Below, piece by piece: positions 21,001 to 64,000 of a stretch of 64,000 nucleotides of DNA. Origin of the DNA: Eledone cirrhosa (lineage: Eukaryota); the NCBI GenBank assembly GCA_964016885.1, contig OZ024740.1, positions 295,926,001-295,990,000 of the forward strand. The letters are read 5' to 3'. The position numbers and the translations under genes are program-made. The stretch's first letter is position 1. Each line of letters starts with the position of its first letter. The notes under the pieces are model-generated. The model made no database searches, was not told where the DNA came from, and was given only the letters and a program-made list of their open reading frames with translations.

Positions 21001-24000
21001 ATAGACAGTGAGTGTACATAAGAATATATTATATAGACAATGACTGTACCTAACAATATATTATATAGATAGTGAATGTACCTAACAATATATTATATAG
21101 ACAGTGAGTGTACCTAAGAATATATTATATAGACAGTTAATGTATCTAACAATATATTATATAGACAGTGAGTGTACTGAGAATATATTATATAGACAGT
21201 GAGTGTAATGAGAATATATTATATAGACAGTGAATGTATCTAACAATATATTATATAGACAGTGAGTGTACTGAGAGTATATTATATAGACAGTGAGTGT
21301 ACTGAGAATATATTATATAGACAGTGAGTGTACCTAAGAATATATTACATAGACAGTGAGTGTACCTAAGAATATATTATATAGACAGTGAGTGTACCTA
21401 AGAATATATTATATAGACAGTGAGTGTACTGAGAATATATTATATAGACAGTGAGTGTACCTAAGAATATATTATATAGACAGTGAGTGTACCTAAGAAT
21501 ATATTATATAGACAGTGAGTGTACCTGAGAATATACTATATAGACAGTGAGTGTACCTAAGAATATATTATATAGACAGTGAGTGTACCTTAGAATATAT
21601 TATATAGACAGTGAGTGTACCAAATAATATATTATATAGACAGTGAGTCTACCTAAGAATATATTATATAGATAGTGAGTGCACCTAAGAATATATTATA
21701 TAGACAGTGAGTGTATCTAAGAATATATTATATAGACAGTGAGTGTATCTAAGAATATATTATATGGACAGTGAGTGTACCTAAGAATATATTATATAGA
21801 TAGTGAGTGTACCTAAGAATATATTATATAGACAGTGAGTGTACCTAAGCATATATTATATAGACAGGAGTGTACCTGAGAATATATTATATAGACAGTG
21901 AGTGTATCTAAGATCTAAGAATATATTATATAGACAGTGAGTTTACTGAGAATATATTATATAGACAGCCAGTGTACCTAAGGATATATTATATAGACAG
22001 TGAGTGTACCCGAGAATATATATAGACAGTGAGTGTACCTAAGAATATATTATATAGACAGTGAGTGTACCTAAGAATATATTATATAGACAGTGAGTGT
22101 ACCTAAGAATATATTATATAGACAGTGAGTGTACCTAAGAATATATTATATAGACAGTGAGTGTACCTAAGAATATATTATAAAGACAGCGAGTGTAACT
22201 AAATTATATTATATAGACAGTGAGTGTACATAAGAATATATTATATAGACAGTTAGTGTACCTAAGAATATATTATATAGACAGTGAGTGTACCTAACAA
22301 TATATTATACAGACAGTGAGTGTACCTAAGAATATATTATATTGACAGTGAGTGTACCTAAAAATATATTATATAGACAGTGAGTGTACCTAAGATTATA
22401 TTATATAGACAGTGAGTGTACCTAAGAATATATTATATAGACAGTGAATGTACCTAAGAATATATTATATAGATAGTGAGTGTACCTCAGAATATATTAT
22501 ATAGACAGTGAGTGTATCTAAGAATATATTATATAGACAGTGAGTGTACCTAAGAATATATTATATAGACAGTGACTGTACCTAAGAATATATTATATAG
22601 ACAGTGAGTGTACCTAAGAATTTATTATATAGACAGTGAATGTACCTAAGAATATATTATATAGACAGTGACTGTACCTAAGAATATATTATATAGACAG
22701 TGACTGTACCTAACAATATATTATATAGATAGTGAGCGTACCTAACAATATATTATATAGACAGTGAGTGTACCTAAGAATATATTATATAGACAGTGAA
22801 TGTATCTAACAATATATTATATAGACAGTGAGTGTAATGAGAATATATTATATAGACAGTGAATGTACCTAACAATATATTATATAGACAGTGAGTGTAC
22901 TGAGAATATATTATATAGACAGTGAGTGTACCAAAGAATATATTATATAGACAGTGAGTGTACCTAAGAATATATTATATAGACAGTGAGTGTACCTCAG
23001 AATATATAATATAGACAGTGAGTGTACCTAAGAATATATTATATAGACAGCGAGTGTAACTAAGAATATATTATATAGACAGTGAGTGTACCTGAGAATA
23101 TATTATATAGACAGTGGGTGTACCTAAGAATATATTATATAGACAGTGAGTGTACCTAAGAATATATTATAAAGACAGTGAGTGTACCAAATAATATATT
23201 ATATAGACAGTGAGTCTACCTAAGAATATATTATATAGATAGTGAGTGTACCTAAGAATATATTATATAGACAGTGAGTGTATCTAAGAATATATTATAT
23301 AGACAGTGAGTGTATCTAAGAATATATTATATAGACAGTGAGTGTACCTAAGAATATATTATATAGATAGTGAGTGTACCTAAGAATATATTATATAGAT
23401 AGTGAGTGTACCTAAGAATATATTATATAGACAGTGAGTGTATCTAAGAATATATTATATAGACAGTGAGTGTACCTAAGCATATATTATATAGACAGGA
23501 GTGTACCTGAGAATATATTATATAGACAGTGAGTGTATCTAAGATCTAAGAATATATTATATAGACAGTGAGTGTACCTAAGAATATATTATATAGACAG
23601 TGAGTGTACCTAAGAATATATTATATAGACAGTGAGTGTACCTAAGAATATATTATATAGACAGTGAGTGTACCTAAGAATATATTATATAGACAGTGAG
23701 TGTACCTAAGAATATATTATATAGACAGCGAGTGTACCTAAAATATATTATATAGAAAGTGAGTGTACATAAGAATATATTATATAGACAGTGACTGTAC
23801 CTAACAATATATTATATAGATAGTGAATGTACCTAACAATATATTATATAGACAGTGAGTGTACCTAAGAATATATTATATAGACAGTTAATGTATCTAA
23901 CAATATATTATATAGACAGTGAGTGTACTGAGAATATATTATATAGACAGTGAGTGTAATGAGAATATATTATATACACAGTGAATGTATCTAACAATAT

Positions 24001-27000
24001 ATTATATAGACAGTGAGTGTACTGAGAGTATATTATATAGACAGTGAGTGTACTGAGAATATATTATATAGACAGTGAGTGTACCTAAGAATATATTACA
24101 TAGACAGTGAGTGTACCTAAGAATATATTATATAGACAGTGAGTGTACCTAAGAATATATTATATAGACAGTGAGTGTACTGAGAATATATTATATAGAC
24201 AGTGAGTGTACCTAAGAATATATTATATAGACAGTGAGTGTACCTAAGAATATATTATATAGACAGTGAGTGTACCAGAGAATATACTATATAGACAGTG
24301 AGTGTACCTAAGAATATATTATATAGACAGTGAGTGTACCTTAGAATATATTATATAGACAGTGAGTGTACCAAATAATATATTATATAGACAGTGAGTC
24401 TACCTAAGAATATATTATATAGATAGTGAGTGTACCTAAGAATATATTATATAGACAGTGAGTGTATCTAAGAATATATTATATAGACAGTGAGTGTATC
24501 TAAGAATATATTATATGGACAGTGAGTGTACCTAAGAATATATTATATAGATAGTGAGTGTATCTAAGAATATATTATATAGACAGTGAGTGTACCTAAG
24601 CATATATTATATAGACATGAGTGTACCTGAGAATATATTATATAGACAGTGAGTGTATCTAAGATCTAAGAATATATTATATAGACAGTGAGTTTACTGA
24701 GAATATATTATATAGACAGCCAGTGTACCTAAGAATATATTATATAGACAGTGAGTGTACCCGAGAATATATATAGACAGTGAGTGTACCTAAGAATATA
24801 TTATATAGACAGTGAGTGTATCTAAGAATATATTATATAGACAGTGAGTGTACATAAGAATATATTATATAGACAGTGAGTGTACCTAAGAATATATTAT
24901 ATAGACAGTGAGTGTACCTAACAATATATTATATAGACAGTGAGTGTACCTAAGAATATATTATATAGACAGTGAGTGTACCTAAGAATATATTATATAG
25001 ACAGTGAGTGTACCTAAGAATATATTATATAGGTAGTGAGTGTACCTAAGAATATATTATATAGACAGTGAATGTACCTAAGAATATATTATATAGATAG
25101 TGAGTGTACCTCAGAATATATTATATAGACAGTGAGTGTATCTAAGAATATATTATATAGACAGTGAGTGTACCTAAGAATATATTATATAGACAGTGAC
25201 TGTACCTAAGAATATATTATATAGACAGTGAGTGTACCTAAGAATATATTATATAGACAGTGAATGTACCTAAGATTATATTATATAGACAGTGACTGTA
25301 CCTAAGAATATATTATATAGACAGTGAGTGTACCTAAGATTATATTATATAGACAGTGACTGTACCTAAGAATATATTATATAGACAGTGAGTGTACCAA
25401 ATAATATATTATATAGACAGTGAGTCTACCTAAGAATATATTATATAGATAGTGAGTGTACCTAAGAATATATTATATAGACAGTGAGTGTATCTAAGAA
25501 TATATTATATAGACAGTGAGTGTATCTAAGAATATATTATATAGACAGTGAGTGTACCCGAGAATATATATAGACAGTGAGTGTACCTAAGAATATATTA
25601 TATAGACAGTGAGTGTATCTAAGAATATATTATATAGACAGTGAGTGTAAATAAGAATATATTATGTAGACAGTGAGTGTACCTAAGAATATATTATATA
25701 GACAGTGAGTGTACCTAACAATATATTATATAGACAGTGAGTGTACCTAAGAATATATTATATAGGTAGTGAGTGTACCTAAGAATATATTATATAGACA
25801 GTGAATGTACCTAAGAATATATTATATAGATAGTGAGTGTACCTCAGAATATATTATATAGACAGTGAGTGTATCTAAGAATATATTATATAGACAGTGA
25901 GTGTACCTAAGAATATATTATATAGACAGTGACTGTACCTAAGAATATATTATATAGACAGTGAGTGTACCTAAGAATATATTATATAGACAGTGAATGT
26001 ACCTAAGATTATATTATATAGACAGTGACTGTACCTAAGAATATATTATATAGACAGTGAGTGTACCTAAGATTATATTATATAGACAGTGACTGTACCT
26101 AAGAATATATTATATAGACAGTGAGTGTACCTAAGAATATATTACATAGACAGTGAGTGTACCTAAGAATATATTATATAGACAGTGAATGTATCTAACA
26201 ATATATTATATAGACAGTGAGTGTACTGAGAATATATTATATAGACAGTGAGTGTAATGAGAATATTTCATATAGACAGTGAATGTACCTAACAGTATAT
26301 TATATAGACAGTGAGTGTACTGAGAGTATATTATATAGACAGTGAGTGTACTGAGAATATATTATATAGACAGTGAGTGTACCTAAGAATATATTATATA
26401 GACAGTGAGTGTACCTAAGAATATATTATATAGACAGTGAGTGTACCTAAGAATATATTATATAGACAGTGAGTGTACGTGAGAATATATTATATAGACA
26501 GTGATTGTACCTAAGAATATATTATATAGACAGTGAGTGTACCAAAGAATATATTATATAGACAGTGAGTGTACCTAAGAATATATTATATAGACAGTGA
26601 GTGTACCTAAGAATATATTATATAGACAGTGAGTGTACCTAAGAATATTTTATATAGAGAGTGAATGTACCTAAGAATATATTATATAGATAGTGAGTGT
26701 ACCTCAGAATATATTATATAGTCAGTGAGTGTACCTAAGAATATATTATATAGACAGTGACTGTACCTAAGAATATATTATATAGACAGTGAGTGTACCT
26801 AAGAATATATTACATAGACAGTGACTGTACCTAACAATATATTATATAGATAGTGAATGTACCTAAGAATATATTATATAGACAGTGAGTGTACCTAAGA
26901 ATATATTATATAGATAGTGAATGTATCTAACAATATATTATATAGACAGTGAGTGTACTGAGAATATATTATATAGACAGTGAGTGTAATGAGAATATTT

Positions 27001-29947
27001 CATATAGACAGTGAATGTACCTAACAATATATTATATAGACAGTGAGTGTACTGAGAGTATATTATATAGACAGTGAGTGTACTGAGAATATATTATATA
27101 GACAGTGAGTGTACCTAAGAATATATTATATAGACAGTGAGTGTACCTAAGAATATATTATATAGACAGTGAGTGTACCTAAGAATATATTATATAGACA
27201 GTGAGTGTACCTAACAATATATAATATAGACAGTTAGTGTTCATAAGAATATATTATATAGATAGTGAGTGTACCTAAGAATATTTTATATCGACAGTGA
27301 GTGTACCTAATAATATATTATATAGACAGTGAATGTATCTAACAATATATTATATAGACAGTGAGTGTAATGAGAATATATTATATAGACAGTGAGTGTA
27401 CCTAAGAATATATTATATAGACAGTGAGTGTACCTAAGAATATATTATATAGACAGTGAGTGTACCTAAGAATATATTATATAGACAGTCAGTGTACCTA
27501 AGAATATATTATATAGACAGTGAATGTACCTAAGAATATATTATATAGATAGTGAGTGTACCTCAGAATATATAATATAGACAGTGAGTGTACCTAAGAA
27601 TATATTATATAGACAGCGAGTGTACCTAAGAATATATTATATAGACAGTGAGTGTACCTGAGAATATATTATATAGACAGTGGGTGTACCTAAGAATATA
27701 TTATATAGACAGTGAGTGTACCTAAGAATATATTATATAGACAGTGAGTGTACCAAATAATATATTATATAGACAGTGAGTGTATCTAAGAATATATTAT
27801 ATAGACAGTGAGTGTACCTAAGAATATATTATATAGATAGTGAGTGTACCTAAGAATATATTATATAGATAGTGAGTGTACCTAAGAATATATTATATAG
27901 ACAGTGAGTGTATCTAAGAATATATTATATAGACAGTGAGTGTACCTAAGCATATATTATATAGACAGGAGTGTACCTGAGAATATATTATATAGACAGT
28001 GAGTGTATCTAAGATCTAAGAATATATTATATAGACAGTGAGTGTACCTAAGAATATATTATATAGACAGTGAGTGTACCTAAGAATATATTATATAGAC
28101 AGTGAGTGTACCTAAGAATATATTATATAGACAGTGAGTGTACCTAAGAATATATTATATAGACAGTGAGTGTACCTAAGAATATATTATATAGACAGCG
28201 AGTGTACCTAAAATATATTATATAGACAGTGAGTGTACATAAGAATATATTATATAGACAGTGACTGTACCTAACAATATATTATATAGATAGTGAATGT
28301 ACCTAACATTATATTATATAGACAGTGAGTGTACCTGAGAATATATTATATAGACAGTTAATGTATCTAACAATATATTATATAGACAGTGAGTGTACTG
28401 AGAATATATTATATAGACAGTGAGTGTAATGAGAATATATTATATAGACAGTGAATGTATCTGACAATATATTATATAGACAGTGAGTGTACTGAGAGTA
28501 TATTATATAGACAGTGAGTGTACTGAGAATATATTATATAGACAGTGAGTGTACCTAAGAATATATTACATAGACAGTGAGTGTACCTAAGAATATATTA
28601 TATAGACAGTGAGTGTACCTAAGAATATATTATATAGACAGTGAGTGTACTGAGAATATATTATATAGACAGTGAGTGTACCTAAGAATATATTATATAG
28701 ACAGTGAGTGTACCTAAGAATATATTATATAGACAGTGAGTGTACCTGAGAATATACTATATAGACAGTGAGTGTACCTAAGAATATATTATATAGACAG
28801 TGAGTGTACCTTAGAATATATTATATAGACAGTGAGTGTACCTTAGAATATATTATATAGACAGTGAGTGTACCAAATAATATATTATATAGACAGTGAG
28901 TGTACCTAAGAATATATTATATAGATAGTGAATGTATCTAAGAATATATTATATAGACAGTGAGTGTATCTAAGAATATATTATATGGACAGCGAGTGTA
29001 CCTAAGAATATATTATATAGATAGTGAGTGTACCTAAGAATATATTATATAGACAGTGAGTGTACCTAAGCATATATTATATAGACAGGAGTGTACCTGA
29101 GAATATATTATATAGACAGTGAGTGTATCTAAGATCTAAGAATATATTATATAGACAGTGAGTTTACTGAGAATATATTATATAGACAGCCAGTGTACCT
29201 AAGCATATATTATATAGACAGTGAGTGTACCCGAGAATATATATAGACAGTGAGTGTACCTAAGAATATATTATATAGACAGTGAGTGTATCTAAGAATA
29301 TATTATATAGACAGTGAGTGTACATAAGAATATATTATATAGACAGTGAGTGTACCTAAGAATATATTATATAGACAGTGCGTGTACCTAACAATATATT
29401 ATATAGACAGTGAGTGTACCTAAGAATATATTATATAGACAGTGAGTGTACCTAAGAATATATTATATAGACAGTGAGTGTACCTAAGAATATATTATAT
29501 AGGTAGTGAGTGTACCTAAGAATATATTATATAGACAGTGAATGTACCTAAGAATATATTATATAGATAGTGAGTGTACCTCAGAATATATTATATAGAC
29601 AGTGAGTGTATCTAAGAATATATTATATAGACAGTGAGTGTACCTAAGAATATATTATATAGACAGTGACTGTACCTAAGAATATATTATATAGACAGTG
29701 AGTGTACCTAAGAATATATTATATAGACAGTGAATGTACCTAAGATTATATTATATAGACAGTGACTGTACCTAAGAATATATTATATAGACAGTGAGTG
29801 TACCTAAGATTATATTATATAGACAGTGACTGTACCTAAGAATATATTATATAGACAGTGAGTGTACCTAAGAATATATTACATAGACAGTGAGTGTACC
29901 TAAGAATATATTATATAGACAGTGAATGTATCTAACAATATATTATA
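1..29947 (+). repeat. 32-bp AT-rich tandem satellite array, left block (roughly 930-940 monomers; continues beyond window start)
   Basis: TTATATAGACAGTGAGTGTACCTAAGAATATA repeats head to tail with a 32-bp period (same phase at positions 1 and 481 = 15 x 32). Most monomers differ by 0-3 substitutions, with recurrent length variants (31, 33, 29 and 39 bp). No spacers and no inversions seen. Confidence 0.99.
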
Positions 29948-30159
29948 CTAGACATGAAAAATGCGCAAGCTCAAAAGTGCCACAGAATGTTATAATAAAC
30001 CTTCAAAAGTGTGGGACTAGAGTTGTTGCTAAAAAATATTGTAATCATTATATATCGTACATTCTGTGGCATCCTTTATAAAAATAGCTTAAACTAACGA
30101 AGCCTTTATTTTTACGCTATTTCACTTAGTTAATTCTTAGAGTGTAACATATAAAAATA
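29948..30159. repeat. Left arm of a 212-bp inverted repeat (outer CTAG terminus of the insertion)
   Basis: Reverse complement of 30691-30902. One mismatch seen (AAACTAACG vs AAACCAACG). Confidence 0.97.
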
Positions 30160-30197
30160 TGATTTACAACTATAAAATAAATTAATTAATATAATAA

Positions 30198-30285
30198 CAG
30201 AGCTGCGGAGCTGAAATTTAGGAAATAATGGAGTATCGGATCCTGAGTTGGAGCCAGTCAATTTTTGACCGACTCCGCAGCCCTG
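30198..30285. mobile_element. 88-bp hAT-like MITE remnant
   Basis: 13-bp TIRs CAGAGCTGCGGAG (30198-30210) and CTCCGCAGCCCTG (30273-30285) match 12/13. Flanking 8-mers TATAATAA (30190-30197) and TATAATAC (30286-30293) match 7/8. CAG...CTG ends with an 8-bp TSD are typical of hAT elements. Confidence 0.72.
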
Positions 30286-30690
30286 TATAATACATTTCAT
30301 ATTAAAGTTATTAATAAACCTATTTTACACTTCATGCAAATTACCACGAGATATTGATATTAGATATAAGATACAGCGCAATATCTACAGCTGTAAAAGT
30401 ACGAAAGCGAAGTAATAATAAGTGGCTTAAGGTAATTCCAATATGAAAGTTTGTAGTGATAAAAATTTGATAATGCAATACGATTGTTAATATTATAGTT
30501 CTATGAAAATGTAACAATAGATAACTAAATTATTTTACTATTAGTATATTTAAGAAATTATCATTATAGATTTGATCGTTCATATAAGCATCATATTAAG
30601 TTTCAACACAATTATTTTGTTACTATGAGTATATGATAATAATATTACGTAATTATTTATAGCTGTTATTACATTAAACATAGATGTATT

Positions 30691-30902
30691 TATTTTTATA
30701 TGTTACACTCTAAGAATTAACTAAGTGAAATAGCGTAAAAATAAAGGCTTCGTTGGTTTAAGCTATTTTTATAAAGGATGCCACAGAATGTACGATATAT
30801 AATGATTACAATATTTTTTAGCAACAACTCTAGTCCCACACTTTTGAAGGTTTATTATAACATTCTGTGGCACTTTTGAGCTTGCGCATTTTTCATGTCT
30901 AG
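30691..30902. repeat. Right arm of the 212-bp inverted repeat (internal inverted copy ending ...CATGTCTAG followed by T)
   Basis: TATTTTTATATGTTACACTC...GCGCATTTTTCATGTCTAG is the reverse complement of 29948-30159. The spacer is 531 bp (30160-30690). Confidence 0.97.
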
Positions 30903-31057
30903 TTTAATATTTTTTTAAGGCAACGCTTGTAATAACTCTAGTTAAACAGGATATATATTAATAATAAATTATCGTTGTAATGTAATTAGATTATGTAATT
31001 GTTATTATAAATTATCTTATAAATATTAGTGTAAGATGTATAAAAATATTTTCAGAC

Positions 31058-31096
31058 TTTTAATATAAACAACTACAAAAAACAATCAATATTAAA
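31058..31096 (+). repeat. 39-bp dispersed direct repeat, copy 1
   Basis: TTTTAATATAAACAACTACAAAAAACAATCAATATTAAA matches 32136-32174 at 38/39. Confidence 0.9.
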
Positions 31097-31460
31097 TCAA
31101 TATATTATACATAATAGAAAACATAAAATATACAATACAAAAACAAAATATTTACATACATTTGCAATTATCAGTGTATATACATTTTCTTTATATTCCC
31201 TGAGCAAATTAATAAGATTTGTTTTTATTGTACATAATTTGATGACTTGTTGGAGTGTATTAAAAGATAGCAACAATTTGTGATTAAATTGTTATCTTAA
31301 GCAACTCACTTTTTAATAGTTGTTGGCTGAGCGAAATTGTAAAAGCCTATGAGCAAATATAAAAAAAAATACACAAACAACATTTCCTTGTGTTATTACA
31401 ACATTAGATAAAATAATTGAGCAATGTCGTTATATTTTGCTCTTATTGCACATTAATAGT

Positions 31461-31635
31461 GTTTCTATTTTTCGGCACAAATCCATTACGGCAGTCCATT
31501 ACTGGTACTTTATTTTATCGAATTAGTAAGTATGAAAGTCGAAGTTAACCTCGGCAGGATTTGAACTTAGAATGCAAAGGACCATAACAATACTGCAAAG
31601 CATGGTGTATGACGCTCTACCAATACTTGTGTTGA
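31461..31635 (-). mobile_element. Diverged tRNA-derived SINE copy (resembles octopus SINE families, from memory)
   Basis: The minus strand has a tRNA-like A-box region TTGGTAGAGCG (~31613-31623), a B-box GTTCAAATCC (31557-31566), then GAGGTTAACTTCGACTTTCAT...TCGATAAAATAAAGTACCAGT. The last part is shared with a second copy at 32425-32470. Outer boundaries are approximate. Confidence 0.7.
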
Positions 31636-32020
31636 GCTGGTCATTAATTTATGGTGGTCGTGCGTGAAGTAGAGCAATCGCTAGTTGAAATATTATGAAC
31701 AAAACATTTTTATTTGCCGAAGAACATATTTTCAATACTGTTTGTGAATGTGACGAAGGAAATACATTCTGATATGGAACAGTGTACAAAGTGTGTCTGT
31801 GAATAACATAATGTTACCTCATGTTGTTGTCAAGACATAATGGATTTCGTTTATCCAGTTAGAAGATGAAACCTAGCCATCTCGGATTAGTTATATTTCA
31901 TGCCATGTGTAAACGTGTTTGAGGATAGCAAAATATGCGCGTTAATTATAATAATTAGTTAATAATATTACAAAATATACCTAATTAAACTCTTTGCTTG
32001 AAATTTTATCATTCTTCGTT

Positions 32021-32056
<36 letters not shown>
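32021..32056 (+). repeat. Compound microsatellite (TA)10(GA)8
   Basis: Read directly from the sequence. Confidence 0.97.
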
Positions 32057-32135
32057 CATTTATCTAGTCCTTCGCTCAAGATTAATCTATAAGTTTAGAT
32101 GTTTGCCTTCGTTTAAGTAAATATTACAGTAAGAT

Positions 32136-32174
32136 TTTTAATATAAACAACTACAAAAAACAATTAATATTAAA
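32136..32174 (+). repeat. 39-bp dispersed direct repeat, copy 2
   Basis: TTTTAATATAAACAACTACAAAAAACAATTAATATTAAA, offset 1,078 bp from copy 1. Confidence 0.9.
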
Positions 32175-32424
32175 ACGAAAAAATTATCAATGATAAAAGA
32201 AGCGGATGCAACTTTTTTTTTTATAAAGTTATATTCCTGTTTCTTTAAAGAACATTTCATTTTTGTTCTATTGTAGGCGAAATAATGCAATGGTTTAATA
32301 GGGAAGATATAACTTACGAATTATGTCTCTAACCGTGTAACGCTTTTTAAGTAGATAACTACAATTGAAAATACTAAAGAAATGGAACCAACAATTCAAT
32401 TTGAAAGTCGTCTAGTGACAGTGT

Positions 32425-32470
32425 ATTACTGGTACTTTATTTTATCGACCCCGTAACGATGAAAGGCAAA
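32425..32470 (-). mobile_element. Second, truncated fragment of the same SINE (central domain only)
   Basis: ATTACTGGTACTTTATTTTATCGA is identical to 31498-31521 and is followed by CCCCGTAACGATGAAAGGCAAA. The Pol III box region is missing. Confidence 0.7.
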
Positions 32471-32498
32471 AATGCAAATGCTTAAAATTTAAATTGCC

Positions 32499-32604
32499 TT
32501 AATTCTATCGTCTGCTGTTTCATTAAAGGGAGATTATCGTCTGTATTTAATTCTATCGTCTACTGTTCCACTAAACAGATATACCTCCACTATCGTCTCT
32601 ATTT
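32499..32604 (+). repeat. Imperfect tandem duplication of about 50 bp containing four TATCGTCT motifs
   Basis: TTAATTCTATCGTCTGCTGTTTCATTAAA...TATCGTCTGTATTT is followed by AATTCTATCGTCTACTGTTCCACTAAA...TATCGTCTCTATTT. Confidence 0.8.
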
Positions 32605-32831
32605 ATACATTTTAACTTATAACTTATACACATTTGATTTGAAATATTTTATCTAGTCCCCCCTCTCAATATTATGATGATTTCTTTCGAATGAAACAGT
32701 TCTAGTCCTGTAGAAGCCATTTATATATATAATTGAACTGAGTTAAAAATTCACAATATTTATAATTAAATAAGCTCATATATATATGTGTGTATTTATC
32801 TGTTTATTGTATTATATATAATGTGTGTATA

Positions 32832-32870
32832 TACAGGATGTCCCCCAAAAATATATACACACTTCAACAG
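32832..32870 (+). mobile_element. Possible solitary Tc1/mariner-like terminal repeat
   Basis: TA followed by CAGGATGTCCCCCAAAAATATATACACACTT resembles the TA|CAGGGTGTCCC...AAA starts of Tc1/mariner-superfamily TIRs. It sits in a TA-rich tract. No partner end found. Confidence 0.4.
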
Positions 32871-32968
32871 CATTCTAATAACTATTGCCTGTACAGGTAA
32901 TCAAAGTGTCAATCGAATGTTAGTTTCGTGTTTTAACAGTACAAATTTACAATACACACATAAAACCA

Positions 32969-33018
32969 GTGTATATACATACATGAATGTGTATACACAT
33001 ACATGAATGTGTATATAC
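32969..33018 (+). repeat. 20-bp minisatellite, 2.5 copies, within a TA/CA low-complexity tract
   Basis: GTGTATATACATACATGAAT GTGTATACACATACATGAAT GTGTATATAC. Confidence 0.9.
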
Positions 33019-33084
33019 AATATATATGTATATATATATAGACACATATATTCACGGTGCAACGGTACATTAAAATATAGATGC

Positions 33085-33320
33085 GGGAGAGGGGGGTGTA
33101 TATATAGGGGCGCTGGGGATAAAGGAGTGTAAAGCGTGTGTAATTGATATATTGAAGGAGAGGAGCGTGCAGCGATAGAGTAACAAATATATAGAGAGGG
33201 GGGAGAGATGGTATTGAAGGGGAGGAGTGCAAAGCGAAAGAGTAAGAGATATATATATAGAGACGGAACAGATAGAGAGAAACAGGCGTAAGTAACAGTG
33301 GAAGAGATATAGAGAGAGGT
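33085..33320 (+). repeat. Purine-rich region with degenerate tandem units of about 60 bp
   Basis: TATTGAAGGAGAGGAGCGTGCAGCGATAGAGTAA (~33150) and TATTGAAGGGGAGGAGTGCAAAGCGAAAGAGTAA (~33212), plus a partial AAGGAGTGTAAAGCG (~33122). Strong G/A strand bias. Confidence 0.7.
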
Positions 33321-33408
33321 ACTCTGATTGGTTGAAAATTAGCCAATGACATACGATCACCACCACCACGGCTATCCCCGAAACATTTTTAAAGAAGCTA
33401 GGCATATA

Positions 33409-33462
33409 TGTTAGAACACGAAAAGTGAACATTCTGTGTTTCACACTTTTCGTGTTCTAACA
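33409..33462. other. Terminal hairpin: perfect 19-bp stem and 16-nt loop, 2 nt from the TC end of the insertion
   Basis: TGTTAGAACACGAAAAGTG (33409-33427) pairs with CACTTTTCGTGTTCTAACA (33444-33462). Confidence 0.95.
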
Positions 33463-33464
33463 GA

Positions 33465-36400
33465 TAGACAGTGAGTGTACTGAGAATATATTATATAGAC
33501 AGTGAGTGTAATGAGAATATTTCATATAGACAGTGAATGTACCTAACAATATATTATATAGACAGTGAGTGTACTGAGAGTATATTATATAGACAGTGAG
33601 TGTACTGAGAATATATTATATAGACAGTGAGTGTACCTAAGAATATATTATATAGACAGTGAGTGTATCTAAGATCTAAGAATATATTATATAGACAGTG
33701 AGTGTACCTAAGAATATATTATATAGACAGTGAGTGTACCTAAGAATATATTATATAGACAGTGAGTGTACCTAAGAATATATTATATAGACAGTGAGTG
33801 TACCTAAGAATATATTATATAGACAGTGAGTGTACCTAAGAATATATTATATAGACAGCGAGTGTACCTAAAATATATTATATAGACAGTGAGTGTACAT
33901 AAGAATATATTATATAGACAGTGACTGTACCTACCAATATATTATATAGATAGTGAATGTACCTAACAATATATTATATAGACAGTGAGTGTACCTAAGA
34001 ATATATTATATAGACAGTTAATGTATCTAACAATATATTATATAGACAGTGAGTGTACTGAGAATATATTATATAGACAGTGAGTGTAATGAGAATATAT
34101 TATATAGACAGTGAATGTATCTAACAATATATTATATAGACAGTGAGTGTACTGAGAGTATATTATATAGACAGTGAGTGTACTGAGAATATATTATATA
34201 GACAGTGAGTGTACCTAAGAATATATTACATAGACAGTGAGTGTACCTAAGAATATATTATATAGACAGTGAGTGTACCTAAGAATATATTATATAGACA
34301 GTGAGTGTACTGAGAATATATTATATAGAGAGTGAGTGTACCTAAGAATATATTATATAGACAGTGAGTGTACCTAAGAATATATTATATAGACAGTGAG
34401 AGTACCTGAGAATATACTATATAGACAGTGAGTGTACCTAAGAATATATTATAGAGACAGTGAGTGTACCTTAGAATATATTATATAGACAGTGAGTGTA
34501 CCTTAGAATATATTATATAGACAGTGAGTGTACCAAATAATATATTATATAGACAGTGAGTCTACCTAAGAATATATTATATAGATAGTGAGTGTATCTA
34601 AGAATATATTATATAGACAGTGAGTGTATCTAAGAATATATTATATGGACAGTGAGTGTACCTAAGAATATATTATATAGATAGTAAGTGTACCTAAGAA
34701 TATATTATATAGACAGTGAGTGTACCTAAGCATATATTATATAGACAGGAGTGTACCTGAGAATATATTATATAGACAGTGAGTGTATCTAAGATCTAAG
34801 TATATATTATATAGACAGTGAGTTTACTGAGAATATATTATATAGACAGCCAGTGTACCTAAGCATATATTATATAGACAGTGAGTGTACCCGAGAATAT
34901 ATATAGACAGTGAGTGTACCTAAGAATATATTATATAGACAGTGAGTGTATCTAAGAATATATTATATAGACAGTGAGTGTACATAAGAATATATTATAT
35001 AGACAGTGAGTGTACCTAAGATATATTATATAGACAGTGAGTGTACCTAACAATATATTATATAGACAGTGAGTGTACCTAAGAATATATTATATAGACA
35101 GTGAGTGTACCTAAGAATATATTATATAGACAGTGAGTGTACCTAAGAATATATTATATAGGTAGTGAGTGTACCTAAGAATATATTATATAGACAGTGA
35201 ATGTACCTATGAATATATTATATAGATAGTGAGTGTACCTCAGAATATATTATATAGACAGTGAGTGTATCTAAGAATATATTATATAGACAGTGAGTGT
35301 ACCTATGAATATATTATATAGACAGTGACTGTACCTAAGAATATATTATATAGACAGTGAGTGTACCTAAGAATATATTATATAGACAGTGAATGTACCT
35401 AAGATTATATTATATAGACAGTGACTGTACCTAAGAATATATTATATAGACAGTGAGTGTACCTAAGATTATATTATATAGACAGTGACTGTACCTAAGA
35501 ATATATTATATAGACAGTGAGTGTACCTAAGAATATATTACATAGACAGTGAGTGTACCTAAGAATATATTATATAGACAGTGAATGTATCTAACAATAT
35601 ATTATATAGACAGTGAGTGTACTGAGAATATATTATATAGACAGTGAGTGTAATGAGAATATTTCATATAGACAGTGAATGTACCTAACAATATATTATA
35701 TAGACAGTGAGTGTACTGAGAGTATATTATATAGACAGTGAGTGTACTGAGAATATATTATATAGACAGTGAGTGTACCTAAGTATATATTATATAGACA
35801 GTGAGTGTATCTAAGATCTAAGAATATATTATATAGACAGTGAGTGTACCTAAGAATATATTATATAGACAGTGAGTGTACCTAAGAATATATTATATAG
35901 ACAGTGAGTGTACCTAAGAATATATTATATAGACAGTGAGTGTACCTAAGAATATATTATATAGACAGCGAGTGTACCTAAAACATATTATATAGACAGT
36001 GAGTGTACATAAGAATATATTATATAGACAGTGACTGTACCTACCAATATATTATATAGATAGTGAATGTACCTAACAATATATTATATAGACAGTGAGT
36101 GTACCTAAGAATATATTATATAGACAGTTAATGTATCTAACAATATATTATATAGACAGTGAGTGTACTGAGAATATATTATATAGACAGTGAGTGTAAT
36201 GAGAATATATTATATAGACAGTGAATGTATCTAACAATATATTATATAGACAGTGAGTGTACTGAGAGTATATTATATAGACAGAGAGTGTACTGAGAAT
36301 ATATTATATAGACAGTGAGTGTACCTAAGAATATATTACATAGACAGTGAGTGTACCTAAGAATATATTATATAGACAGTGAGTGTACCTAAGAATATAT

Positions 36401-39400
36401 TATATAGACAGTGAGTGTACCTTAGAATATATTATATAGACAGTGAGTGTACCAAATAATATATTATATAGACAGTGAGTCTACCTAAGAATATATTATA
36501 TAGATAGTGAGTGTATCTAAGAATATATTATATAGACAGTGAGTGTATCTAAGAATATATTATATGGACAGTGAGTGTACCTAAGAATATATTATATAGA
36601 TAGTAAGTGTACCTAAGAATATATTATATAGACAGTGAGTGTACCTAAGCATATATTATATAGACAGGAGTGTACCTGAGAATATATTATATAGACAGTG
36701 AGTGTATCTAAGATCTAAGTATATATTATATAGACAGTGAGTTTACTGAGAATATATTATATAGACAGCCAGTGTACCTAAGCATATATTATATAGACAG
36801 TGAGTGTACCCGAGAATATATATAGACAGTGAGTGTACCTAAGAATATATTATATAGACAGTGAGTGTATCTAAGAATATATTATATAGACAGTGAGTGT
36901 ACATAAGAATATATTATATAGACAGTGAGTGTACCTAAGATATATTATATAGACAGTGAGTGTACCTAACAATATATTATATAGACAGTGAGTGTACCTA
37001 AGAATATATTATATAGACAGTGAGTGTACCTAAGAATATATTATATAGACAGTGAGTGTACCTAAGAATATATTATATAGGTAGTGAGTGTACCTAAGAA
37101 TATATTATATAGACAGTGAATGTACCTAAGAATATATTATATAGATAGTGAGTGTACCTCAGAATATATTATATAGACAGTGAGTGTACCTAAGCATATA
37201 TTATATAGACAGGAGTGTACCTGAGAATATATTATATAGACAGTGAGTGTATCTAAGATCTAAGTATATATTATATAGACAGTGAGTTTACTGAGAATAT
37301 ATTATATAGACAGCCAGTGTACCTAAGCATATATTATATAGACAGTGAGTGTACCCGAGAATATATATAGACAGTGAGTGTACCTAAGAATATATTATAT
37401 AGACAGTGAGTGTATCTAAGAATATATTATATAGACAGTGAGTGTACATAAGAATATATTATATAGACAGTGAGTGTACCTAAGATATATTATATAGACA
37501 GTGAGTGTACCTAACAATATATTATATAGACAGTGAGTGTACCTAAGAATATATTATATAGACAGTGAGTGTACCTAAGAATATATTATATAGACAGTGA
37601 GTGTACCTAAGAATATATTATATAGGTAGTGAGTGTACCTAAGAATATATTATATAGACAGTGAATGTACCTAAGAATATATTATATAGATAGTGAGTGT
37701 ACCTCAGAATATATTATATAGACAGTGAGTGTATCTAAGAATATATTATATAGACAGTGAGTGTACCTATGAATATATTATATAGACAGTGACTGTACCT
37801 AAGAATATATTATATAGACAGTGAGTGTACCTAAGAATATATTATATAGACAGTGAATGTACCTAAGATTATATTATATAGACAGTGACTGTACCTAAGA
37901 ATATATTATATAGACAGTGAGTGTACCTAAGATTATATTATATAGACAGTGACTGTACCTAAGAATATATTATATAGACAGTGAGTGTACCTAAGAATAT
38001 ATTACATAGACAGTGAGTGTACCTAAGAATATATTATATAGACAGTGAATGTATCTAACAATATATTATATAGACAGTGAGTGTACTGAGAATATATTAT
38101 ATAGACAGTGAGTGTAATGAGAATATTTCATATAGACAGTGAATGTACCTAACAATATATTATATAGACAGTGAGTGTACTGAGAGTATATTATATAGAC
38201 AGTGAGTGTACTGAGAATATATTATATAGACAGTGAGTGTACCTAAGTATATATTATATAGACAGTGAGTGTATCTAAGATCTAAGAATATATTATATAG
38301 ACAGTGAGTGTACCTAAGAATATATTATATAGACAGTGAGTGTACCTAAGAATATATTATATAGACAGTGAGTGTACCTAAGAATATATTATATAGACAG
38401 TGAGTGTACCTAAGAATATATTATATAGACAGCGAGTGTACCTAAAATATATTATATAGACAGTGAGTGTACATAAGAATATATTATATAGACAGTGACT
38501 GTACCTACCAATATATTATATAGATAGTGAATGTACCTAACAATATATTATATAGACAGTGAGTGTACCTAAGAATATATTATATAGACAGTTAATGTAT
38601 CTAACAATATATTATATAGACAGTGAGTGTACTGAGAATATATTATATAGACAGTGAGTGTAATGAGAATATATTATATAGACAGTGAATGTATCTAACA
38701 ATATATTATATAGACAGTGAGTGTACTGAGAGTATATTATATAGACAGAGAGTGTACTGAGAATATATTATATAGACAGTGAGTGTACCTAAGAATATAT
38801 TACATAGACAGTGAGTGTACCTAAGAATATATTATATAGACAGTGAGTGTACCTAAGAATATATTATATAGACAGTGAGTTTACTGAGAATATATTATAT
38901 AGACAGTGAGTGTACCTAAGAATATATTATATAGACAGTGAGTGTACCTAAGAATATATTATATAGACAGTGAGTGTACCTTAGAATATATTATATAGAC
39001 AGTGATTGTGTACCAAATAATATATTATATAGACAGTGAGTCTACCTAAGAATATATTATATAGATAGGGAGTGTATCTAAGAATATATTATATAGACAG
39101 TGAGTGTATCTAAGAATATATTATATGGACAGTGAGTGTACCTAAGAATATATTATATAGATAGTGAGTGTACCTAAGAATATATTATATAGACAGTGAG
39201 TGTACCTAAGCATATATTATATAGACAGGAGTGTACCTGAGAATATATTATATAGACAGTGAGTGTATCTAAGATCTAAGAATATATTATATAGACAGTG
39301 AGTTTACTGAGAATATATTATATAGACAGCAAGTGTACCTAAGCATATATTATATAGACAGTGAGTGTACCCGAGAATATATATAGACAGTGAGTGTACC

Positions 39401-42400
39401 TAAGAATATATTATATAGACAGTGAGTGTATCTAAGAATATATTATATAGACAGTGAGAGTACATAAGAATATATTATATAGACAGTGAGTGTACCTAAG
39501 AATATATTATATAGACAGTGAGTGTACCTGACAATATATTATATAGACAGTGAGTGTACCTAAGAATATATTATATAGACAGTGAGTGTACCTAAGAATA
39601 TATTATATAGACAGTGAGTGTACCTAAGAATATATTATATAGGTAGTGAGTGTACCTAAGAATATATTATATAGACAGTGAATGTACCTAAGAATATATT
39701 ATATAGATATTGAGTGTACCTCAGAATATATTATATAGACAGTGAGTGTATCTAAGAATATATTATATAGACAGTGAGTGTACCTAAGAATATATTATAT
39801 AGACAGTGACTGTACCTAAGAATATATTATATAGACAGTGAGTGTACCTAAGAATATATTATATAGACAGTGAATGTACCTAAGATTATATTATATAGAC
39901 AGTGACTGTACCTAAGAATATATTATATAGACAGTGAGTGTACCTAAGATTATATCATATAGACAGTGACTGTACCTAAGAATATATTATATAGACAGTG
40001 AGTGTACCTAAGAATATATTACATAGACAGTGAGTGTACCTAAGAATATATTATATAGACAGTGAATGTATCTAACAATATATTATATAGACAGTGAGTG
40101 TACTGAGAATATATTATATAGACAGTGAGTGTAATGAGAATATTTCATATAGACAGTGAATGTACCTAACAATATATTATATAGACAGTGAGTGTACTGA
40201 GAGTATATTATATAGACAGTGAGTGTACTGAGAATATATTATATAGACAGTGAGTGTACCTAAGAATATATTATATAGACAGTGTGTGTACCTAAGAATA
40301 TATTATATAGACAGTGAGTGTACCTAAGAATATATTATATAGACAGTGAGTGTACCTAACAATATATAATATAGACAGTTAGTGTTCATAAGAATATATT
40401 ATATAGATAGTGAGTGTACCTAAGAATATTTTATATCGACAGTGAGTGTACCTAATAATATATTATATAGACAGTGAATGTATCTAACAATATATTATAT
40501 AGACAGTGAGTGTAATGAGAATATATTATATAGACAGTGAATGTACCTAACAATATATTATATAGACAGTGAGTGTACTGAGAGTATATTATATAGACAG
40601 TGAGTGTACTGAGAATATATTATATAGACAGTGAGTGTACCTAAGAATATATTATATAGACAGTGAGTGTACCTAAGAATATATTATATAGACAGTGAGT
40701 GTACCTAAGAATATATTATATAGACAGTGAGTGTACCTAAGAATATATTATATAGACAGTGAGTGTACCTATAAATATATTATATAGACAGTGAGTGTAC
40801 CTAAGAATATATTATTTAGACAGTGAGTGTACCTAACAATATATTATATAGATAGTGAGTGCACCTAAGAATATATTATATAGACAGTGAGTGTACCTAA
40901 GAATATATTATATAGACAGTGAATGTACCTAAGAATATATTATATAGATAGTGAGTGTACCTCAGAATATATAATATAGACAGTGAGTGTACCTAAGAAT
41001 ATATTATATAGACAGCGAGTGTACCTAAGAATATATTATATAGACAGTGAGTGTACCTGAGAATATATTATATAGACAGTGGGTGTACCTAAGAATATAT
41101 TATATAGACAGTGAGTGTACCTAAGAATATATTATATAGACAGTGAGTGTACCAAATAATATATTATATAGACAGTGAGTCTACCGAAGAATATATTATA
41201 TAGATAGTGAGTGTACCTAAGAATATATTATATAGACAGTGAGTGTATCTAAGAATATATTATATAGACAGTGAGTGTATCTAAGAATATATTATATAGA
41301 CAGTGAGTGTACCTAAGAATATATTATATAGATAGTGAGTGTACCTAAGCATATATTATATAGGCAGGAGTGTACCTGAGAATATATTATATAGACAGTG
41401 AGTGTATCTAAGATCTAAGAATATATTATATAGACAGTGAGTGTACCTAAGAATATATTATATAGACAGTGAGTGTACCTAAGAATATATTATATAGACA
41501 GTGAGTGTACCTAAGAATATATTATATAGACAGTGAGTGTACCTAAGAATATATTATATAGACAGTGAGTGTACCTAAGAATATATTATATAGACAGCGA
41601 GTGTACCTAAAATATATTATATAGACAGTGAGTGTACATAAGAATATATTATATAGACAGTGACTGTACCTAACAATATATTATATAGATAGTGAATGTA
41701 CCTAACAATATATTATATAGACAGTGAGTGTACCTAAGAATATATTATATAGCCAGTTAATGTATCTAACAATATATTATATAGACAGTGAGTGTACTGA
41801 GAATATATTATATAGACAGTGAGTGTAATGAGAATATATTATATAGACAGTGAATGTATATAACAATATATTATATAGACAGTGAGTGTACTGAGAGTAT
41901 ATTATATAGACAGTGAGTGTACTGAGAATATATTATATAGACAGTGAGTGTACCTAAGAATATATTACATAGACAGTGAGTGTACCTAAGAATATATTAT
42001 ATAGACAGTGAGTGTACTGAGAATATATTATATAGACAATGAGTGTACCTAAGAATATACTATAAAGACAGTGAGTGTACCTAAGAATATATTATATAGA
42101 CAGTGAGTGTACCTGAGAATATACTATATAGACAGTGAGTGTACCTAAGAATATATTATATAGACAGTGAGTGTACCTTAGAATATATTATATAGACAGT
42201 GAGTGTACCAAATAATATATTATATAGACAGTGAGTCTACCTAAGAATATATTATATAGATAGTGAGTGTACCTAAGAATATATTATATAGACAGTGAGT
42301 GTATCTAAGAATATATTATATAGACAGTGAGTGTATCTAAGAATATATTATATAGATAGTGAGTGTACCTAAGAATATATTATATAGACAGTGAGTGTAC

Positions 42401-45400
42401 CTAAGCATATATTATATAGACAGGAGTGTACCTGAGAATATATTATATAGACAGTGAGTGTATCTAAGATCTAAGAATATATTATATAGACAGTGAGTTT
42501 ACTGAGAATATATTATATAGACAGCCAGTGTACCTAAGCATATATTATATAGACAGTGAGTGTACCCGAGAATATATATAGACAGTGAGTGTACCTAAGA
42601 ATATATTATATAGACAGTGAGTGTATCTAAGAATATATTATATAGACAGTGAGTGTACATAAGAATATATTATATAGACAGTGACTGTACCTAAGAATAT
42701 ATTATATAGACAGTGAGTGTACCTAACAATATATTATATAGACAGTGAGTCTACCTAAGAATATATTATATAGACAGTGAGTGTACCTAAGAATATATTA
42801 TATAGACAGTGAGTGTACCTAAGAATATATTATATAGGTAGTGAGTGTACCTAAGAATATATTATATAGACAGTGAGTGTATCTAAGAATATATTATATA
42901 GACAGTGAGTGTATCTAAGAATATATTATATAGACAGTGACTGTACCTAAGAATATATTATATAGACAGTGAGTGTACCTAAGAATATATTATATAGACA
43001 GTGAATGTACCTAAGATTATATTATATAGACAGTGACTGTACCTAAGAATATATTATATAGACAGTGAGTGTACCTAAGATTATATTATATAGACAGTGA
43101 CTGTACCTAAGAATATATTATATAGACAGTGAGTGTACCTAAGAATATATTACATAGACAGTGAGTGTACCTAAGAATATATTATATAGACAGTGAATGT
43201 ATCTAACAATATATTATATAGACAGTGAGTGTACTGAGAATATATTATATAGACAGTGAGTGTAATGAGAATATTTCATATAGACAGTGAATGTACCTAA
43301 CAATATATTATATAGACAGTGAGTGTACTGAGAGTATATTATATAGACAGTGAGTGTACTGAGAATATATTATATAGACAGTGAGTGTACCTAAGAATAT
43401 ATTATATAGACAGTGAGTGTACCTAAGAATATATTATATAGACAGTGAGTGTACTGAGAATATATTATATAGACAATGAGTGTACCTAAGAATATACTAT
43501 AAAGACAGTGAGTGTACCTAAGAATATATTATATAGACAGTGAGTGTACCTGAGAATATACTATATAGACAGTGAGTGTACCTAAGAATATATTATATAG
43601 ACAGTGAGTGTACCTTAGAATATATTATATAGACAGTGAGTGTACCAAATAATATATTATATAGACAGTGAGTCTACCTAAGAATATATTATATAGATAG
43701 TGAGTGTACCTAAGAATATATTATATAGACAGTGAGTGTATCTAAGAATATATTATATAGACAGTGAGTGTATCTAAGAATATATTATATAGATAGTGAG
43801 TGTACCTAAGAATATATTATATAGACAGTGAGTGTACCTAAGCATATATTATATAGACAGGAGTGTACCTGAGAATATATTATATAGACAGTGAGTGTAT
43901 CTAAGATCTAAGAATATATTATATAGACAGTGAGTTTACTGAGAATATATTATATAGACAGCCAGTGTACCTAAGCATATATTATATAGACAGTGAGTGT
44001 ACCCGAGAATATATATAGACAGTGAGTGTACCTAAGAATATATTATATAGACAGTGAGTGTATCTAAGAATATATTATATAGACAGTGAGTGTACATAAG
44101 AATATATTATATAGACAGTGACTGTACCTAAGAATATATTATATAGACAGTGAGTGTACCTAAGAATATATTATATAGACAGTGAATGTACCTAAGATTA
44201 TATTATATAGACAGTGACTGTACCTAAGAATATATTATATAGACAGTGAGTGTACCTAAGATTATATTATATAGACAGTGACTGTACCTAAGAATATATT
44301 ATATAGACAGTGAGTGTACCTAAGAATATATTACATAGACAGTGAGTGTACCTAAGAATATATTATATAGACAGTGAATGTATCTAACAATATATTATAT
44401 AGACAGTGAGTGTACTGAGAATATATTATATAGACAGTGAGTGTAATGAGAATATTTCATATAGACAGTGAATGTACCTAACAATATATTATATAGACAG
44501 TGAGTGTACTGAGAGTATATTATATAGACAGTGAGTGTACTGAGAATATATTATATAGACAGTGAGTGTACCTAACAATATATTATATAGACAGTGAGTG
44601 TACCTAAGAATATATTATATAGACAGTGAGTGTACCTAAGAATATATTATATAGACAGTGAGTGTACCTGAGAATATATTATATAGACAGTGATCGTACC
44701 TAAGAATATATTATATAGACAGTGAGTGTACCTAAGAATATATTATATAGACAGTGAGTGTACCTAAGAATATATTATATAGACAGTGAGTGTACCTAAG
44801 AATATATTATATAGACAGTGAGTGTACCTAAGAATATATTATATAGATAGTGAGTGTACCTAAGAATATATTATATAGATAGTGAGTGTACCTAAGAATA
44901 CATTATATAGACAGTGAGTGTATCTAAGAATATATTATATGGACAGTGAGTGTAACTAAGCATATATTATATAGACAGGAGTGTACCTGAGAATATATTA
45001 TATAGACAGTGAGTGTATCTAAGATCTAAGAAAATATTATATAGACAGTGAGTGTACCTAAGTATATATTATATAGACAGTGAGTGTACCTAAGAATATA
45101 TTATATAGACAGTGAGTGTACCTAAGAATATATTATATAGACAGTGAGTGTACCTAAGAATATATTATATAGACAGTGAGTGTACCTAAGAATATATTAT
45201 ATAGACAGCGAGTGTACCTAAAATATATTATATAGACAGTGAGTGTACATAAGAATATATTATATAGACAGTGATTGTACCTAACAATATATTATATAGA
45301 TAGTGAATGTACCTAACAATATATTATATAGACAGTGAGTGTACCTAAGAATATATTATATAGACAGTTAATGTATCTAACAATATATTATATAGACAGT

Positions 45401-63400: not shown

Positions 63401-64000
63401 ACCTAATAATATATTATATAGACAGTGAGTGTACCTAACAATATATTATATAGACAGTGAATGTATCCAAGAATATATTATATAGACAGTGATTGTACCT
63501 AAGAATATATTATATAGACAGTGACTGGACCTAATAATATATTATATAGACAGTGAGTGTATCTAAGAATATATTATATAGACAGTGACTGTACCTAAGA
63601 ATATATTATATAGACAGTGAGTGTATTGAGAATATATTATTTAGACAGTGAGTAGCTAAGAATATATTATATAGACAGTGAGTGTACCTAAGAATATATT
63701 ATATAGACAGTGAGTGTACACGAGAATATATATAGACAGTGAGTGTACCTAAGAATATATTATATAGACAGTGAGTGTATCTAAGAATATATTATATAGA
63801 CGGTGAGTGTACATAAGAATATATTATATAGACAGTGAGTGTACCTAAGAATATATTATATAGACAGTGAGTGTACCTAACAATATATTATATAGACAGT
63901 GAGTGTACCTAAGAATATATTATATAGACAGTGAGTGTACCTAAGAATATATTATATAGACAGTGAGTGTACCTAAGAATATATTATATAGTTAGTGAGT
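33465..64000 (+). repeat. 32-bp satellite array, right block (roughly 950-960 monomers; continues beyond window end)
   Basis: Same monomer and orientation. It resumes at TAGACAGTGAGTGTACTGAG, exactly in register with the monomer interrupted at 29947 (...CAATATATTATA|TAGACAG...). Confidence 0.99.

Follow-up and report, generated by a model that had tools for sequence, protein, structure and literature searches.

Which class of Helitron does an element belong to when its strong hairpin lies at the 5' TC end and not before the 3' CTAG, and how does such an element terminate? This question was raised by a single insert in the window, that is, the whole 64-kb stretch of DNA analysed here (G000:C1:295926001-295990000 of a 3.0-Gb host genome, which was searched for copies). 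The window consists of about 2,004 units of a 32-bp satellite, in an array broken by one insert of 3,517 bp; adjacent satellite units show 87% matches, and the array spans window 1-64000 apart from the insert. Read on the minus strand, the insert runs A|TC...CTAG|T and lies between A and T of the satellite unit, and its in-silico removal rejoins that unit in phase. The lack of a target duplication, a partner with an HUH Rep and a Pif1 helicase, and dispersed sharp-ended copies mark it as Helitron-like (Table 1). Two fragments of a very abundant SINE-like host repeat with very high read depth lie inside it, at about 31460-31627 and 32419-32470.

Table 1. Positions in the window of the element, its terminal structures and its satellite target (SIR, subterminal inverted repeat).
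Feature	Position	Strand	Remarks
Host 32-bp satellite array, left of insert	1..29947		Target, outside the element
Non-autonomous Helitron-like element, 3,517 bp	29948..33464	minus	
Foldback outer arm, true 3' end	29948..30159	minus	CTAG at 29948-29951; without short hairpin
3' SIR core	29982-29991		In outer foldback arm
Foldback spacer, 531 bp	30160..30690		Opposite orientation in a few other genomic copies
Foldback inner arm, 212-bp inverted copy of the 3' end	30691..30902	plus	Flush with terminal CTAG; inner CTAG at 30899-30902
Approximate deletion junction	31939..31943	minus	About 9.3 kb of parent, including the whole RepHel frame, absent
5' stem, second arm	33409..33427	minus	
5' SIR copy, 10-bp core	33428..33437	minus	Base 11 (33438) matches only in the window element's subfamily
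5' stem, first arm (perfect 19 bp)	33444..33462	minus	
5' terminal TC	33463..33464	minus	Host A before TC in 30/30 copies
Host 32-bp satellite array, right of insert	33465..64000		

The 5' end: stem and subterminal inverted repeat

The first-pass annotation of this DNA had placed a perfect stem of 19 bp at a distance of 2 nt from the TC end, and the two arms of this stem do pair throughout, with a DNA fold of -21.9 kcal/mol (z -8.1 against dinucleotide shuffles). It had also named an 11-bp SIR shared by the two ends. The match itself is right, AACATTCTGTG at 33428-33438 being the reverse complement of 29981-29991, and so are its distances of 26 and 33 nt from the respective termini; a third copy of the 11-mer is found at 30859-30869, within the inner foldback arm. 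The length, however, holds for a minority only: in 54 of 62 5' ends of family 1, the family of the window element, one extra loop base shortens the SIR to the 10-mer ACAGAATGTT, and the 11th base matches in a subfamily with a 1-bp loop deletion (8/62). These 62 ends are the family-1 ends among 100 listed of 1,144 matches to a looser 5' pattern, and were counted by hand. Likewise, the AAAAGTG said to precede both sites is present at 33421 and 29973, but it is gone from both ends of a sister family (family 2).

Taken alone, the 11-mer match is modest. In fact, among 2,901 random pairs of 60-nt windows within the element, an inverted match of at least 11 occurred in 24 pairs and one of at least 10 in 69. 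We count the SIR as real because it co-varies across families, switching from ACAGAATGTT to AGTAATATTGTTG at both ends together. In four families the distance from the end of the TGTT core of the SIR is 35-38 nt to TC and about 42-44 nt to the CTRR terminus. As the SIR lies at the stem foot in families 3 and 4 and in the loop in family 1, the distance to the end is conserved and not the position in the loop. The expectation that stem and SIR would be conserved or co-vary among copies was thus confirmed across families, while the 11-mer length, the loop position and AAAAGTG turned out to be family-specific.

In eight copies (L139, L142, L144, L150, L154, L156, L157 and L162) the second arm of the 5' stem carries short duplications or inserted simple repeats, or the 5' end is doubled, as if slippage or re-initiation had taken place at the foot of the stem.

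Copies of family 1 and its sister family

When the genome was searched with the 5' end, 736 candidates came up. The 30 best scorers were taken as loci, so that their internal identity is selected and the flanking base is not, and all 30 start with A|TC. In 19 of 20 copies fetched at greater length, the TC end and the CTAG|T end lie 3.5-3.9 kb apart, which bears out the earlier claim that the two ends belong to one element; both foldback arms are present in all 19, and the twentieth copy is interrupted. The base after CTAG is T in 61 of 62 distinct CTAG ends. Furthermore, a 44-nt end motif has 1,216 matches in the genome, and since 617 of them have the inner flank, there are about 600 copies, nearly all of them two-armed. 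Family 1 is a young family of roughly 600 copies. The host repeats in the flanks of L103 and L123 have a resemblance to octopus-type SINEs, and the host is possibly a cephalopod.

The looser 5' pattern, with its 1,144 matches, also revealed family 2, an older sister family with elements of 1.0-1.2 kb. Pairing in its stem is preserved by one substitution and two indels, all of them two-sided, and by one wobble, as read off the sequences. Its loop 10-mer is identical to that of family 1, as the search pattern demanded. These elements have otherwise lost almost everything, and they keep a foldback of about 445 bp, from CTAG to CTAG. The spacer has one orientation in 25 of 30 copies (three of these are a tandem triplicate), is inverted in four and is unclear in one; two of the four inverted copies are long-form cassettes. 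In family 1 the spacer is inverted in 1 of 41 copies. The long-form copies L167 and L032 have 137-bp arms, and L167 contains the spacer sequences of both families, which indicates that, in each short form, distal segments were added to or removed from the two arms jointly. Three near-identical family-2 copies (L192-L194, G000:C1:52.92-52.93 Mb) stand at a spacing of about 5.5 kb and are likely to be a tandem segmental duplication.

Copy-by-copy homogenisation of the arms after insertion was not seen in family 2, where the arms diverge independently: old arms have 93 shared changes within copies against 86 expected from pairing arms of different copies, with an imperfect reference arm. In family 1, copy L183 has one private change common to both arms, which also occurs in one other outer arm. 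As the arms diverge independently after insertion, homogenisation would take place in the source elements.

The terminal foldback

No notable hairpin was found in the last 45 nt of the window element (z +1.4), in agreement with the first-pass annotation, which had not seen that this CTAG end is itself one arm of a 955-bp foldback. A short 3' hairpin in the last 45 nt was found in none of the four families (z +1.4 to -0.8) by a test of low power, for which one of four canonical ends was clear (z -4.2) and the others gave 0.0, -0.7 and -1.9. The two 212-bp arms of the foldback, which makes up the last 955 bp of the element, differ by one mismatch and pair the terminal CTAG. Within the spacer, the 88-bp segment 30198-30285 has near-complementary GC-rich ends and looks like a tiny MITE carried as a passenger of the element.

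In one independent sequencing run the arms have about twice the depth of the neighbouring sequence, which argues against an assembly artefact. Sequencing reads cover the element in four runs; among the matches listed, there was no end-to-end joint in reads and no RNA dataset with element reads. The 955-bp cassette was also considered as a free-standing MITE, which was not supported, as a constant body flank lies on one side of every paired cassette examined.

The autonomous partner

In the autonomous parent at G000:C1:200487334-200500174, a family-1 5' end lies 12,840 bp from the 3' end, and the window element matches the initial 1,526 bp of this parent at 95% and the final 1,996 bp at 99%. 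By these matches the window element is an internal-deletion derivative of the 12,840-bp element. The parent encodes a single open frame of 2,230 aa with Pfam matches to DUF6570 (E 2e-17), Helitron_like_N, PIF1 and a C-terminal UCH (E 3e-9); there was no Pfam match to an endonuclease (Exo_endo_phos) domain, and UCH occupies that slot. HUH, YxxxY, Walker and UCH Cys/His motifs were found in the protein, which we presume to have the roles generally known for them. Twenty genomic copies match its 287-aa Rep segment at 98-100%, seven of them with frames of 2,230-2,245 aa. Three further autonomous copies were retrieved, each bounded by A|TC and CTAG|T; the foldback is two-armed in two of them, and in the third the inner arm is missing.

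Two diagnostic sites were compared. Rep motif 2 reads FFWRLEYQMRGAPHVH with the F-W-R Helentron signature, an F/Y-x-R ahead of this motif being characteristic of Helentrons according to the part of PMC4067079 available. The second site is GAP, against GSP in Helentrons and GLP in Helitrons. In the accessible text of the HELIANO study (PMC11417382), DUF6570 is a marker of HLE2 (the Helitron2/Helentron branch), and UCH is enriched in HLE2 subgroups c and d.

The first-pass annotation had proposed placing the partner's Rep domain in a phylogeny, and the domain falls in HLE2. In a quick tree of 48 rows, with Helentrons recognised by their endonuclease domain and no named reference Helitron2 or Helentron sequences, families 1, 3 and 4 group together (100) within a 36-row clade (99) adjoining the endonuclease-bearing Helentrons, and six canonical-ended RepHels of the same genome are separate (100). 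Members of the 36-row clade have a C-terminal UCH or OTU where checked. By sequence, the RepHel of the autonomous partner is assigned to the HLE2 branch and not to canonical HLE1. The UCH at L180:1230-7922 (minus strand) keeps its Cys and His boxes, and OTU replaces UCH in related metagenome proteins, so that two unrelated deubiquitinase folds are seen in one slot.

These data bear on the alternative of a canonical HLE1 Helitron that acquired a 5' hairpin and SIR, or of a recent recombinant of the two classes, moved by a canonical RepHel. The TC/CTAG ends and the A|T target are those typical of HLE1, HLE1 RepHels are numerous in the genome (3,704 first-look Rep-family candidates, of either class), and Hel-2 has such an end layout in the portion of PMC4344730 available. 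Canonical RepHel families were considered as partners in 20 long-frame loci out of these 3,704 candidates and rejected, the four families with readable ends having unrelated canonical termini. Moreover, in four fetched near-identical autonomous copies it is a frame of HLE2 type that lies between the element's own termini, and the same layout recurs in four diverged HLE2 families. This alternative is already largely refuted, and we regard it as very improbable.

Two observations were made on the canonical families. A young one at L114:2858-8011 has an intact 1,718-aa STPR-RepHel frame and copies 98-99% identical in the same genome. One canonical RepHel recurs every 100-130 kb or so at C20:3.5-5.2 Mb, C27:13-15.5 Mb and C19:35-40 Mb (G000), which suggests that on three chromosomes it forms part of a tandem repeat whose unit is very large.

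Distant families and metagenome relatives

Ten loci with 57-63% Rep identity to family 1 were fetched. Eight of them start with A|TC and, 2 nt farther in, have a stem of 10 bp; seven of these stems are perfect and one is interrupted by a small insertion. The stems are unrelated in sequence to that of family 1, and between families 3 and 4 there is a two-sided change from C-G to G-C. The 13-bp SIR AGTAATATTGTTG of these two families occupies 5' positions 25-37, with its 3' copy at the place of ACAGAATGTT in family 1; it is present at both ends in five of six loci with both ends, the sixth having a rearranged end.

Seven distant loci have an inverted repeat at the 3' side, with 136-227 aligned bp over a span of about 0.9-1.1 kb, and its inner arm is flush with the last base in all five with a readable terminus, the other two ends being rearranged. 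The terminus is CTAG in family 3 (two loci) and CTGG in family 4 (three loci), where the inner arm starts with CCAG. Over the first 135 nt the inner and outer arms agree at 135/135 in families 1, 2 and 3 and at 131/135 in family 4, while identity between families is 129/134 for family 1 against 2 and about 60-68% for family 1 against 3 and 4, the latter two represented by one copy each. The sequence directly before the inner arm is homologous across all four families, and the plain reading is that the foldback would have one ancient origin followed by concerted evolution. Thus three other families, down to about 58% Rep identity, retain the A|TC start, a stem at the 5' end, an SIR that co-varies and a foldback flush with the terminus.

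A metagenome scan gave 80 loci, of which 16 were examined in detail. L262 and L289, of the RepHel-OTU type (domains were scanned in L289 and in L261, a near-identical twin of L262), have inverted repeats of 304 bp and 211 bp that are 99-100% identical and span 1.0-1.15 kb. These lie 3.6-5.1 kb downstream of the frame and are not plainly flush with a CTRR. L260, L261, L269 and L278 have homology to the start of the L262/L289 arm, and their contigs end 110-790 bp farther on. No A|TC stem of at least 10 bp was found upstream of the frames of these relatives. The metagenome repeats are supporting but not decisive evidence of a foldback in relatives.

What the foldback may do

In the canonical model, Helraiser is nicked at TC and unwound, a short hairpin before CTAG stops the enzyme, and circles with head-to-tail joints are formed (PMC4778049, accessible text). 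For the element described here, the sequence comparisons lead us to favour, with only a little better than even confidence, a reading in which the flush foldback of about 1 kb is the stop-and-cleave signal that replaces the short 3' hairpin, the SIR is the recognition site and repair in the stem homogenises the arms. By analogy with Helraiser (PMC4778049, same text), RepHel would nick at A|TC and unwind the strand toward CTAG. The SIR would serve for recognition at a fixed distance from each cut, not as a loop element. As the last kilobase is displaced, the outer arm could anneal to the inner arm, which by then would be single-stranded, so that the 3' SIR and the CTRR would be presented in a duplex reaching to the very last base. 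This duplex would halt RepHel and mark the cleavage, and repair or copying within the stem at the single-stranded stage may keep the arms alike and occasionally invert the spacer. We count for this reading that the foldback is retained in the 1.0-1.2-kb elements of family 2 and is flush in families 3 and 4, and against it that single copies without the inner arm still have a precise CTAG|T end, namely one of autonomous size at C3:72.98 Mb, L173 and the copy upstream in L028.

The same three armless copies fit another explanation, in which the foldback is a passenger, left by an ancient self-insertion in opposite orientation or by a template-switch duplication of the 3' end, and SIR and CTRR alone terminate the element. 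Repair at the single-stranded stage would then keep the arms alike with no need of the foldback. The inner arm reads CTAG|T as any inserted 3' end does, copies nested in one another are present in the host genome (L004 and L048), and opposite-orientation self-insertion has been proposed for FoHelis (PMC5148889, available portion). Set against this, the foldback has persisted since the split of families at about 58% Rep identity and survives in the minimal 1.0-1.2-kb derivatives, and inner arms account for about half of all arm matches. Long inverted repeats normally tend to be lost by deletion, and this also counts against a passenger, which we find doubtful though it deserves serious weight.

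The inverted spacers bring a further explanation into view. Parvovirus terminal hairpins (flip/flop) are substrates of an HUH enzyme in which the 3' end folds back flush around an invertible centre. The likeness is an analogy only, as here there is one such end, with arms of 174-218 bp, a long spacer and rare inversion, in an integrated transposon. If the end were self-priming in this manner, the excised strand would be linear, its terminal base on the inner arm would prime the second strand, and RepHel would resolve the hairpin, regenerating one arm from the other. Indeed, all four families have a paired terminal base, the spacer inversions of both families would be expected, and gains or losses of distal segments were symmetrical between the arms in each family. 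The exact head-to-tail junction of families 1 and 2 has 0 matches in the genome, against such junctions in 3 of 20 canonical RepHel loci (L115:2095, L120:8967 and L127:9152, oriented coordinates); this lack equally fits tight termination. Symmetric hairpin transfer in AAV predicts that about half of the copies are flipped, whereas in the young family only 1 of 41 is. The 100 inner-arm matches listed include no inverted dimer; three double matches in this set have only 8 nt of flank in common. The idea that the 3' end is extended with the inner flank as template was tested and rejected: the six pattern matches were three mutated inner arms and three true outer flanks, with one shorter case besides, against seven flanks that diverge after 5 nt. 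We therefore think a self-priming end quite improbable. The wider proposal of an undescribed, recently active animal HLE2 lineage (GAP motif, fused deubiquitinase), in which the concertedly evolving foldback would be the working 3' terminus, self-priming in a parvovirus-like way and with no head-to-tail circle, is likewise unlikely.

Whichever role it has, the terminal structure is conserved in form and not in sequence across four families. In the accessible parts of the literature found, HLE2 end recognition, stopping and conversion of single to double strand are not worked out, the tested model being the canonical Helitron. The present families offer an HLE2 enzyme with canonical-type ends, seven full-length frames and about 600 young non-autonomous copies. 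They also show that TC/CTAG/A|T termini are not diagnostic of HLE1. Since short-read assemblies are likely to break at foldback ends, the lineage may be under-annotated. If the foldback should prime replication, Helitron transposition would be linked to rolling-hairpin replication.

Comparison with known systems

The following comparisons draw on the accessible parts of the cited papers; the literature compared by term search also included PMC13085455, PMC12001565, PMC6544945 and PMC13342296. The first-pass annotation had suggested that the element mixes structural classes in an undescribed layout. The mixture holds in so far as canonical-type termini go with the HLE2 protein of the autonomous partner, but the layout has precedents and cannot be called new. 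Already known are a 5' hairpin with SIR (Helitron2, PMC3627910; FoHeli3-5, PMC5148889), an HLE2 enzyme with a CTAG end (proto-Helentron, PMC4067079) and TC/CTAG with SIRs (Hel-2, PMC4344730). No description of a long terminal foldback in Helitrons, nor of the full combination of features, above all a flush and concertedly evolving foldback, was found in the portions of the literature searched, a search outside which lie Repbase/Dfam, subscription reviews and the HELIANO supplementary figures S17-S19.

First, Helitron1, represented by Helraiser (PMC4778049), shares the TC and CTAG termini, A|T insertion without duplication and the HUH and Pif1 core. Its RepHel, however, belongs to a different clade (GLP), its terminator hairpin lies 11 nt from the 3' end, and the available text describes it without a 5' hairpin, SIR or foldback. 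Of the HLE1 features, the present element has TC/CTRR/A|T; a hairpin 10-12 nt before CTRR was not found in the low-powered test, and its RepHel is not of the HLE1 clade (GLP, without DUF6570). Lepidopteran Hel-2 has the 5' TC, 3' CTAG, A/T flanks, a 5' inverted repeat and SIRs, but is non-autonomous, about 250 bp long and keeps a 3' stem-loop, and no partner protein is mentioned in the part of PMC4344730 available.

Second, Helitron2 (PMC3627910) and Helentron/DINE-1 (PMC4067079) share the HLE2 clade, a 5' hairpin, asymmetric inverted repeats of 8-15 bp and compensatory changes. They differ in having a short 3' hairpin, T-rich ends and a T|T(C) target, none of which was found in the present element, and their 5' repeat lies 0-2 bp (up to 4) from the end, inside the stem, in contrast to a distance of 24-28 nt here. 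Helentrons moreover have a C-terminal AP endonuclease with T-rich ends and a TT target (PMC4067079), where the present families have UCH and an A|T target. HLE2 subgroups c and d of HELIANO (PMC11417382), compared by domain description, share DUF6570 and UCH without an endonuclease; the accessible text gives no termini for them. FoHeli3-5/HLE2-reverse of Fusarium oxysporum (PMC5148889, PMC11417382) share a 5' hairpin without a 3' hairpin, but their ends are TGCCT...CTCCTGT (PMC5148889) and not TC...CTRR, and in the accessible text of both papers A|T preference is not established and a long foldback is not mentioned; FoHeli1/2 begin with TC (PMC5148889).

Third, the proto-Helentron of Phytophthora infestans (PMC4067079, PMC11417382) shares an HLE2 RepHel without endonuclease, the 3' CTAG, A|T insertion without target duplication, a 5' stem-loop (PMC11417382), a short inverted repeat and a similar size (about 14 kb). 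It starts with TT (PMC4067079), whereas all four families here start with TC; the inverted repeat on its left side is located about 3.6 kb inward, and it carries SET/TIR genes and not a fused UCH (PMC4067079, PMC11417382). In the available parts of these two papers it is reported from oomycetes only, and a terminal foldback is unmentioned. Among the features of proto-Helentron, therefore, the HLE2 RepHel without endonuclease, CTAG, A|T and the 5' stem-loop are present in our element and the TT start is not. By the features tested, the element is neither a Helentron nor a strict Helitron2 nor an HLE1 Helitron, and in its ends it is nearest to proto-Helentron.
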